From Escherichia coli (GTDB taxonomy: Bacteria > Pseudomonadota > Gammaproteobacteria > Enterobacterales > Enterobacteriaceae): 64,000 nucleotides of DNA. The stretch is from the NCBI RefSeq assembly GCF_041886205.1, contig NZ_CP169029.1; one strand, 5' to 3'. The position numbers are program-made. This document shows, in pieces, positions 18,001 to 21,000 of this stretch. Positions within the stretch are counted from its first letter, which is position 1. Each line of letters begins with the position of its first letter.

Positions 18001-21000
18001 ATTCGCATCGTCGCGTACGCGGAAGATGCTGTCCGGTTCCATATCGTTATTCATGACGACCTGTACCACGACCTGACCATCTTCCAGTTTTACCGCAGCC
18101 AGCACCGTACCGGTACGACGCCAGTTCTCGCCCATTTTCAGCTCTAAGTCTTCACCAGCTTCCGGCAGTCGGCTGGCGCTACCTGCCAGCAACCAGAGCG
18201 CGCGTTTGTTGGCACCACGGAATTTTGCTCGCGCCACCATCTCTTGTCCGGTATAGCAGCCTTTTTTAAAGCTGATGCCGCCCAGCGCCTGGAGGTTGGT
18301 CGCCTGTGGGATAAACTGCCCGCTGTTGGCGGCATCAATCACCGGGAAACCCGCTTCAATGTTTAATGCCAGCCACTGTTGGCTATTGTTCAGTTCCGCT
18401 TCACCGCGCAGTTTATCGGTCAGCATATTAGCAGTAGCTTCATCGGTTACGATCAGGAAACGTTCTGCCGGGTGTTCAAACCATAGCAAAGTGGTCGCGC
18501 CTTCTTTAACTACCTGTTTTTCTTTCGAAGGCAGTTCACTAAAGAGATTTGCCAGCGCGGCGCGCGCCTGAAAACCGGCAACACCAAGCAGCACACGCTC
18601 GTCGTCTGGCGCGATGGTCACTTTAGAGAATACCGCATATTTTTTCAGTTCAGTCAGCTGCGGTTCACGTACGCTGCGCCGTTCAATCCATGCAAAGCCA
18701 TCGCCGTCGCGGAACAGACGTAAATTGCTCCACATTTTACCTTTGGCGTCGCAATGGGCGGCGAGCAGGTGCTGATCTTCTGCCATCTGGCTGACATCTG
18801 CTGTCACCTGACCCTGCATATATTTTTCGCTGTCCGCGCCAGTAATGGTGGCAAGCGCCCAGTCATCAAGCGTCATCAGCGTCAGCGGTAAACGGGCAGA
18901 AGCCGTAGGCTGACGGGGAGGAAAAGGTGTAAAAGCCATAATAGAGTCCTGAGTTGCTTAACGGCGTATTAATGACTAATGGTAAAAGAGCTATGAGGCA
19001 ATGCAAGTGCTTTCACTACGCGATCTGTGCCTTCTGCGAGGCGACTTCCAAAAAAATGAAGCCATTGAATTGTTGTGAATTAATTTCGCGATCGCGATGG
19101 TGTTTACTGATATTCCCGTAAAAGAAGGCGAAAAACACGTTACAATAGCGGGGTACTGGATTTTCGTGAGACAGGAAGAAGATGGACATTAACAACAAAG
19201 CCCGCATTCATTGGGCATGCCGCCGTGGTATGCGCGAACTCGATATTTCAATCATGCCGTTTTTCGAACATGAGTACGACAGCTTAAGCGATGACGAAAA
19301 ACGCATCTTTATTCGTCTGCTGGAATGTGACGATCCGGACCTGTTTAACTGGCTGATGAATCACGGTAAACCGGCCGATGCAGAACTGGAAATGATGGTC
19401 CGACTCATCCAGACACGGAACCGGGAACGTGGTCCTGTGGCAATCTGATTTGCGCGTCTCCTGGCGCGCACAGTGGCTTTCCTTGCTGATTCATGGGCTG
19501 GTTGCCGCTGTTATTTTACTCATGCCCTGGCCACTTAGTTACACCCCGTTATGGATGGTGTTACTTTCGCTGGTGGTGTTTGATTGCGTTCGCAGCCAGC
19601 GGCGTATTAATGCTCGCCAGGGGGAAATTCGCTTGTTGATGGACGGGCGTTTGCGTTGGCAAGGGCAGGAGTGGAGCATCGTCAAAGCACCGTGGATGAT
19701 TAAGAGCGGCATGATGCTGCGTTTACGTTCTGATGGCGGTAAACGGCAACATTTATGGCTGGCAGCCGACAGCATGGACGAAGCCGAATGGCGGGATTTA
19801 CGGCGGATTTTGTTGCAACAAGAGACGCAAAGATAAAGATGACGGCAAAGCATATGCGCTAAGCCGTCAGTGAGATCAGGCGTAATGCTCTGCCATTTCG
19901 TTGAGGATTTGCTCGCACCAGCTCTGAATACGCTCGTCGCTAAGGTCATACTGGTTAGTTTCATCCAGCGCCAGACCCACGAACAGTTGCCCGTCAGCAA
20001 TCACCGGTTTCGGGCTGGTAAATTCATATCCTTCCGTTGGCCAGTAGCCGACGAACTTCACGCCTTTGGTCGAGAGTTTGTCATGCAGCATACCGAGCGC
20101 ATCGAGGAACCACTCGCCGTATCCCAGTTGATCGCCAAGCCCATACAGCGCAACAATTTTACCTTCGAGGTTCAGGTCGTCGAGCTGATCCCAGACGGCT
20201 TCCCAGTCTTCCTGGATTTCGCCAAAATCCCAGGTCGGGATACCCAGAATGAGCACATCGTACTGCTCCATTAATTTCGGGGAGTCGTCCTTGAGGTTAT
20301 GTAAGGTCACCAGTTCTGGGCCGATAATATCGCGGATTTTTTCTGCCGCCATTTCGGTGTAACAGGTGCTGGAACCGTAAAAAAGACCCATATTCATAAC
20401 GTAAGCTTCTCGATTCTGCTGTGGCTTTTGCGGCTAGTGTATCAGAATCGCTTTAGTCACGGCACAATAAGGCATAATGGATCAAATGAGTGACCATAAG
20501 GGGCGCAAGTGAAACAGGATCTGGCACGCATCGAGCAGTTTCTTGATGCTCTGTGGCTGGAAAAAAATCTGGCTGAAAATACGTTGAACGCTTACCGTCG
20601 CGATCTGTCAATGATGGTGGAGTGGTTGCATCACCGCGGGTTGACGCTGGCGACGGCGCAAAGTGACGATTTGCAGGCATTACTGGCAGAACGGCTGGAG
20701 GGCGGGTATAAAGCCACCAGCTCAGCGCGTTTGCTGAGTGCAGTGCGCCGATTGTTCCAGTATCTTTATCGCGAAAAGTTTCGTGAAGACGATCCCAGTG
20801 CGCATCTCGCTTCACCGAAATTGCCCCAGCGTTTGCCAAAAGATTTAAGCGAAGCGCAGGTCGAACGTTTATTACAGGCACCATTAATTGATCAGCCACT
20901 GGAGCTACGCGATAAAGCCATGCTTGAAGTGTTGTATGCTACCGGGCTGCGTGTCTCTGAACTGGTCGGACTGACAATGAGTGATATCAGCCTGCGTCAG

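Follow-up and report, generated by a model that had tools for sequence, protein, structure and literature searches.

The sdhE–ygfX locus

The window analysed here, a 64,000-nt stretch of Escherichia coli DNA, carries two overlapping genes on its plus strand, sdhE (also named ygfY or cptB) and ygfX (cptA), flanked by a small set of candidate expression signals (Table 1). Together the two genes fill exactly the interval 19182–19836, for which the original prediction had claimed an sdhE–ygfX (CptB/CptA) pair with the start of ygfX lying 20 nt inside the 3′ end of sdhE. The claimed overlap is exact, and the K-12 MG1655 counterparts, sdhE (b2897, 3040804..3041070) and ygfX (b2896, 3040416..3040823), also overlap by 20 nt. 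The ygfX frame is +1 relative to that of sdhE, with an offset of 247 nt in the ORF listing.

Table 1. Features of the sdhE–ygfX locus, in coordinates of the window
Feature	Position	Strand	Description and basis
Candidate −10 hexamer TACAAT, sdhE–ygfX promoter	19142..19147	+	within AAAAACACGTTACAATAGC; inferred
Shine-Dalgarno-like GACAGGAA	19168..19175	+	last base 6 nt 5′ of sdhE ATG; −4.3 kcal/mol
sdhE (ygfY, cptB)	19182..19448	+	88 aa, ATG start; ORF listing
Dual-coding overlap, 20 nt	19429..19448	+	sequence
ygfX (cptA)	19429..19836	+	135 aa, GTG start; ORF listing
GC-rich hairpin, GACGGC...GCCGTC core	19840..19869		in the 39-nt gap between convergent ygfX and fldB

Alignment to K-12 had been named as the step on which the identification would stand or fall. 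In our alignment, both proteins of the window are 100% identical to the b2897 and b2896 products, and the DNA shows 3 differences in 961 nt, one upstream of the genes (19150) and two synonymous ones in ygfX (19536 and 19785). At 19536, the third base of ygfX codon 36, the window has a T where K-12 and the best match that was compared base by base have another base. The neighbours are those of K-12 as well, namely trhA, ygfZ (divergent), fldB (convergent), xerD, dsbC and recJ, and only the three nucleotide substitutions set the K-12 pair apart from that of the window. A 961-nt query spanning the pair found a match in 5425 of the 5426 complete E. coli genomes searched; the median number of sites per genome is one, and the sites are annotated as sdhE, ygfX and fldB. 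All 15 of the best matches listed have 99.9% identity, and a 100% match occurs in none of the 5426 genomes. Within this collection, the locus is missing from one genome, and a second copy is found in one genome on a plasmid-labelled record. The Pfam and NCBIfam matches described below and this genome-wide presence put the identity of the pair well beyond chance. It is the ordinary, previously described sdhE–ygfX bicistronic operon of E. coli, chromosomal and vertically inherited. The locus is thus already known, and what is added here is at the level of annotation: the depth of overlap conservation, the scarcity of the pair on mobile elements and the prediction of a pleckstrin homology (PH)-like fold for YgfX.

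No canonical sigma-70 promoter was found upstream of sdhE by a consensus scan. The AAAAACACGTTACAATAGC block, which holds the candidate −10 hexamer, is near-invariant in a ygfZ–sdhE intergenic alignment of four genera and has no recognisable −35. It is part of a longer stretch at 19112..19149 (ATTCCCGTAAAAG...AAAAACACGTTACAATAGC) that is near-invariant across E. coli, Salmonella, Citrobacter and Enterobacter. Since TACAAT resembles a −10 element and stands there without a −35, this stretch could be a regulator site. Control by FlhDC and RsmA has been reported in Serratia. A second conserved block at 18977..19013 (TAATGGTAAAAGAGC ... CAATGCAAGTGCTTT) lies near the start of ygfZ, on the other strand, and may be the promoter or leader of ygfZ. 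The Shine-Dalgarno-like sequence of sdhE, whose energy was taken from a duplex scan against the anti-SD sequence, contains a CAGGAA that is invariant in the four genera.

Downstream of the pair, the hairpin between ygfX and fldB has an RNA folding energy of −18.3 kcal/mol (z = −3.5; none of 200 shuffled sequences reached this stability) and a T-rich tail on the minus (fldB) strand only. It is a probable shared terminator of ygfX and fldB, which a strict terminator scan did not report owing to the length of its loop. An Rfam scan of 17000..21000 returned only REP-type naRNA4 elements, all of them outside sdhE–ygfX. These repeats (RF02564) lie in the trhA–ygfZ intergenic region at 17780..17857 (72 bits, above the gathering threshold) and 17899..17972 (a weak match of 24 bits). 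On the minus strand, antisense to ygfX, lies a 153-codon ORF with a TTG start (19539..20000) that also covers the 3′ end of fldB in a different frame; RefSeq records of the region do not annotate this ORF, which is probably spurious.

Conservation of the 20-nt overlap

The dual-coding segment encodes ...R-G-P-V-A-I-stop in the frame of sdhE and (f)M-V-L-W-Q-S-D in that of ygfX. The GTG start of ygfX is embedded in the Arg and Gly codons of SdhE (cGT GGt), and the other loci with a 20-nt overlap have cGT GGn at this place. The junction was compared across 12 YgfX relatives of 27–86% identity, each traced to its genomic context by its exact protein sequence. Of the nine other loci with an sdhE gene that were inspected, seven (from Salmonella to Edwardsiella and Duffyella) have the 20-nt overlap, which makes eight with the window. 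The geometry was found in Citrobacter, Salmonella, Enterobacter, Edwardsiella, Duffyella and two more enterobacterial contigs, and it persists together with the GTG start at YgfX identities of 27–44%, including values below 30%. In Pantoea, the overlap is 26 nt and ygfX starts two codons further upstream. Another contig has an overlap of 14 nt, a further one has a 1-nt gap between the genes, and in the most distant contig sdhE and ygfX are separated by a 30-nt gap.

Short overlaps of adjacent genes are common in bacterial operons. This raises the possibility that ygfX is a neighbour of unrelated function whose start fell into the 3′ end of sdhE by chance. The variation of the junction in some lineages (overlaps of −1, 14, 26 and −30 nt) would be consistent with such an accident, and so would the hairpin predicted over the ygfX start, whose stability compared with shuffled sequences is not significant (z = −1.8). 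However, the sdhE–ygfX pairing is kept over large distances while YgfX diverges to less than 30% identity, the exact 20-nt geometry with GTG recurs in the eight loci, and both co-transcription and a physical interaction have been reported. We therefore consider a functionless overlap highly improbable. The ribosome-binding sequence ahead of the ygfX GTG is weak; because of this weak site, the GTG start and the conserved 20-nt overlap, the overlap is a likely site of translational coupling, at which translation of ygfX would depend on ribosomes that finish sdhE.

Distant homologues share a YgfX N-terminus of the form M-x-x-W-Q/R-x-x-L-R-x-S, including one from a locus without an overlap. Since this N-terminus (M-V-L/R-W-Q/R...) is kept in the overlap-free contig, it is a true coding constraint of YgfX itself and not of SdhE alone. 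We rejected a non-overlapping in-frame TTG start at 19450, as the Pfam match begins at residue 2, the N-terminus is conserved and residues 2–8 are modelled with confidence as a β strand. A programmed frameshift that would produce an SdhE–YgfX fusion was also rejected, in view of scattered junctions and of an overlap with no slippery heptamer. Six ‘fusion’ ORFs of 166–217 aa with both Pfam domains do occur in metagenome and Logan assemblies. Their junctions differ, they are singletons or nearly so, and they have the appearance of isolated indels or misassemblies.

SdhE as a flavinylation factor

SdhE matches the Pfam family Sdh5 (PF03937) over its full length (E = 5e-26, 90.8 bits, cutoff 27) and the NCBIfam equivalog NF008130, ‘FAD assembly factor SdhE’, with 198.4 bits (cutoff 120). 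Over the aligned residues it is near-identical to the PDB entries 1x6i, 6c12 and 6b58, and the latter two, which are the SdhA–SdhE and FrdA–SdhE complexes, match at E-values of 1e-51 to 1e-58. The translation contains the RGxxE motif as R15-G16-M17-R18-E19, a motif needed for binding of the flavoprotein subunit (PMC8621075). The equivalog and the PDB complex chains support the claim that SdhE is an FAD assembly factor. By these matches, and with the activity itself taken from the literature, SdhE is identified as the FAD assembly factor that serves the covalent flavinylation of SdhA and FrdA. Work by others, including the solved complexes, has shown this small soluble protein to be a chaperone that binds the two flavoprotein subunits and helps FAD to become covalently attached to them. 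Within the SdhE/Sdh5/SDHAF2 family (PF03937), of which it is the type member for bacteria, the SdhE of the window shows no difference, having both the full-length match and RGxxE. SdhE extends to alpha- and beta-proteobacteria and to eukaryotes (PMC5042078).

Predicted structure of YgfX

YgfX matches the Pfam family Cpta_toxin (PF07254) with E = 7e-50 and 169 bits (cutoff 27.3), and its residues 2–131 align to positions 1–132 of the 133-position profile, that is, over the full length. Hydropathy windows above 1.6 lie at residues 13–38 and 36–54, and the two hydrophobic segments themselves span about residues 14–34 and 36–54. They are followed by a basic tail, and the pI of the protein is 11. 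A YgfX model computed with AlphaFold2 from 39 diverse members of the family is confident, with a pLDDT of 94.7 over its full length, and shows, in order, a strand (2–8), a helical hairpin (12–31 and 36–62), six strands and a C-terminal helix (118–134). Hydropathy and model thus agree with the earlier description of YgfX as a two-helix membrane protein and with the layout expected of the family, in which two N-terminal transmembrane helices precede a soluble C-terminal domain. The predicted structure also contains the 7-stranded β-sandwich capped by a C-terminal helix that characterises the PH superfold. YgfX is accordingly predicted to be an inner-membrane protein in which an N-terminal β strand leads into a transmembrane hairpin and the remainder (about residues 63–135) forms a basic PH-like domain in the cytoplasm.

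This predicted architecture resembles that of the membrane-anchored bacterial PH (PHb) families DUF304, DUF1200 and DUF2244, which have two N-terminal transmembrane helices and an intracellular PH-like domain (Xu et al. 2010, PMC2817789). The helix pair and the PH-like β-sandwich with its C-terminal helix are as in the YgfX model, and a tendency to multimerise has been reported for both. In contrast to the PHb families, the YgfX model has a strand before the transmembrane hairpin, which may supply β1. The likeness is at the level of predicted fold, and no significant sequence relationship emerged: DUF2244 matches were obtained for 2 of the 39 YgfX relatives, weakly (E about 0.009) and below threshold. 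Foldseek returned no significant match for the full YgfX model, searches of the PDB with the YgfX sequence and profile found no relative, and no paper linking YgfX with ‘pleckstrin’ was found in the literature library searched. The PH-like assignment of YgfX is a fold-level prediction rather than demonstrated homology.

Distribution, synteny and selection

The divergent arrangement of ygfZ and sdhE–ygfX is kept in Salmonella, Citrobacter, Enterobacter, Edwardsiella and Pantoea. Wherever the fetched locus reaches that far, it shows fldB-xerD-dsbC-recJ downstream as well. Both genes are under purifying selection, with a dN/dS of about 0.1 for ygfX and 0.03–0.06 for sdhE, and at the protein level ygfX evolves 2–4 times faster than sdhE. 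Mobile elements hardly contain the pair. YgfX matches occur in 12 of 72,556 plasmid records, most of which are 0.7–5 Mb long and evidently chromosomal sequence filed as plasmids, and three of which are 51–157 kb. Two ‘phage’ records match: a Salmonella chromosomal contig of 691 kb, and an unannotated fragment of 1.5 kb that carries a Salmonella phage label. Neither SdhE nor YgfX matched the PADLOC models. With a threshold of E ≤ 1e-3, the YgfX family amounts to 133 clusters in a set of 1.84 billion representatives.

In Ca. Symbiodolus clandestinus (CP152425.1), which has a 1.5-Mb genome, a ygfX homologue (3001..3444 of the fetched locus) is located 82 nt from a divergent ygfZ, with nadB and rpoE-rseA downstream. 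No sdhE was found in the 6.4-kb ygfX locus of this organism, where a tblastn search of that locus gave noise only.

Is sdhE–ygfX a toxin–antitoxin module?

According to the original prediction, YgfX has been reported as a type IV toxin neutralised by SdhE. Such a report does exist, and the hedge in the word ‘reported’ is needed, as the label is contested. Overexpression of E. coli YgfX was described to inhibit polymerisation of FtsZ and MreB, with relief by SdhE (Masuda 2012, as cited in PMC8621075 and PMC3985639). Homologues from Acinetobacter baumannii behaved as toxin and antitoxin when expressed in E. coli, with a rescue that required 5–10 mM IPTG (PMC8132199). According to PMC3985639, work in Serratia (McNeil 2013) did not reproduce the toxin–antitoxin phenotype, although an SdhE–YgfX interaction is reported in that organism. 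The Shewanella pair failed every toxin–antitoxin criterion tested (PMC8621075), and no SdhE–YgfX interaction was found in that organism. Deletion of ygfX in Serratia had no discernible effect on motility. Co-transcription of sdhE and ygfX has also been reported.

A rival explanation of the pair is a genuine type IV module, in which membrane-bound YgfX blocks polymerisation of FtsZ and MreB, SdhE counteracts it, and growth is arrested under stress. In addition to the E. coli and Acinetobacter experiments, the small bicistronic layout, with the ‘antitoxin’ first and the ‘toxin’ overlapping it, and the Pfam name Cpta_toxin speak for this explanation. Against it, the locus belongs to the core genome, occurs in a single copy and keeps its synteny across Enterobacterales, and the pair is virtually absent from plasmids and phages and without a PADLOC match. 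It does not show the patchy distribution linked to plasmids, prophages or islands that is typical of toxin–antitoxin systems, although that pattern is not strictly defining. The supposed antitoxin is a deeply conserved enzyme-maturation factor with a far wider spread than YgfX (PMC5042078), whose own family is small, as counted above. In the reduced genome of the endosymbiont Ca. Symbiodolus clandestinus, ygfX stands without an adjacent sdhE. The reported SdhE–YgfX interaction itself contradicts the type IV definition, according to which toxin and antitoxin make no direct contact. The failure to reproduce the phenotype in Serratia and Shewanella and the high IPTG concentrations of the Acinetobacter rescue point in the same direction, and we consider a dedicated toxin–antitoxin function unlikely.

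The defining type IV system is CbtA/CbeA (YeeV/YeeU). It and sdhE–ygfX share FtsZ and MreB as the said targets of the toxin and an organisation as small adjacent genes. CbtA/CbeA is located in cryptic prophages, whereas sdhE–ygfX is core, syntenic and virtually absent from mobile elements. Unlike the components of CbtA/CbeA, YgfX is a membrane protein with a predicted PH-like domain, and SdhE has an enzyme-maturation role of its own and reportedly binds YgfX.

YgfX as a probable partner of SdhE

We consider it probable that YgfX is a partner or modulator of SdhE and not a dedicated toxin. YgfX would be a low-abundance protein of the inner membrane, anchored by its transmembrane hairpin and with its PH-like domain in the cytoplasm, and its translation would be tied to that of sdhE through the weak ribosome-binding site, the GTG start and the conserved overlap. 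Most likely it would form membrane-anchored multimers that partner or modulate SdhE, a role suggested by the reported SdhE–YgfX interaction, the co-transcription and the scaffold-like PH fold. Under strong overexpression, cells stop growing and become lemon-shaped, which would then result from overproduction of a basic membrane protein that is able to bind FtsZ and MreB. The toxicity of overexpression in E. coli and the toxin–antitoxin behaviour of the Acinetobacter homologues weigh against an accessory role, and so does the lack of a discernible motility effect of the Serratia ygfX deletion.

A more specific form of the partner role, which we put forward only tentatively and regard as somewhat doubtful, is that YgfX is a membrane-anchored PH-domain protein and no toxin at all. 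Translational coupling would fix the SdhE:YgfX ratio, and YgfX would dock SdhE, or SdhE–flavoprotein intermediates, at the inner membrane, handing flavinylated SdhA and FrdA to their membrane anchors. The effects on FtsZ and MreB would be artefacts of overexpression. If YgfX does prove to be such a docking protein, the ‘CptA/CptB type IV TA’ entry should be retired.

Since the locus behaves like a housekeeping operon, the ‘toxin’ label of YgfX is to be treated with caution. The pair is a cautionary case of genes that appear in toxin–antitoxin catalogues and yet show the genomic behaviour of a housekeeping operon. The predicted PH-like fold and the conserved overlap offer testable handles on the role that YgfX may have in the maturation of complex II and fumarate reductase.
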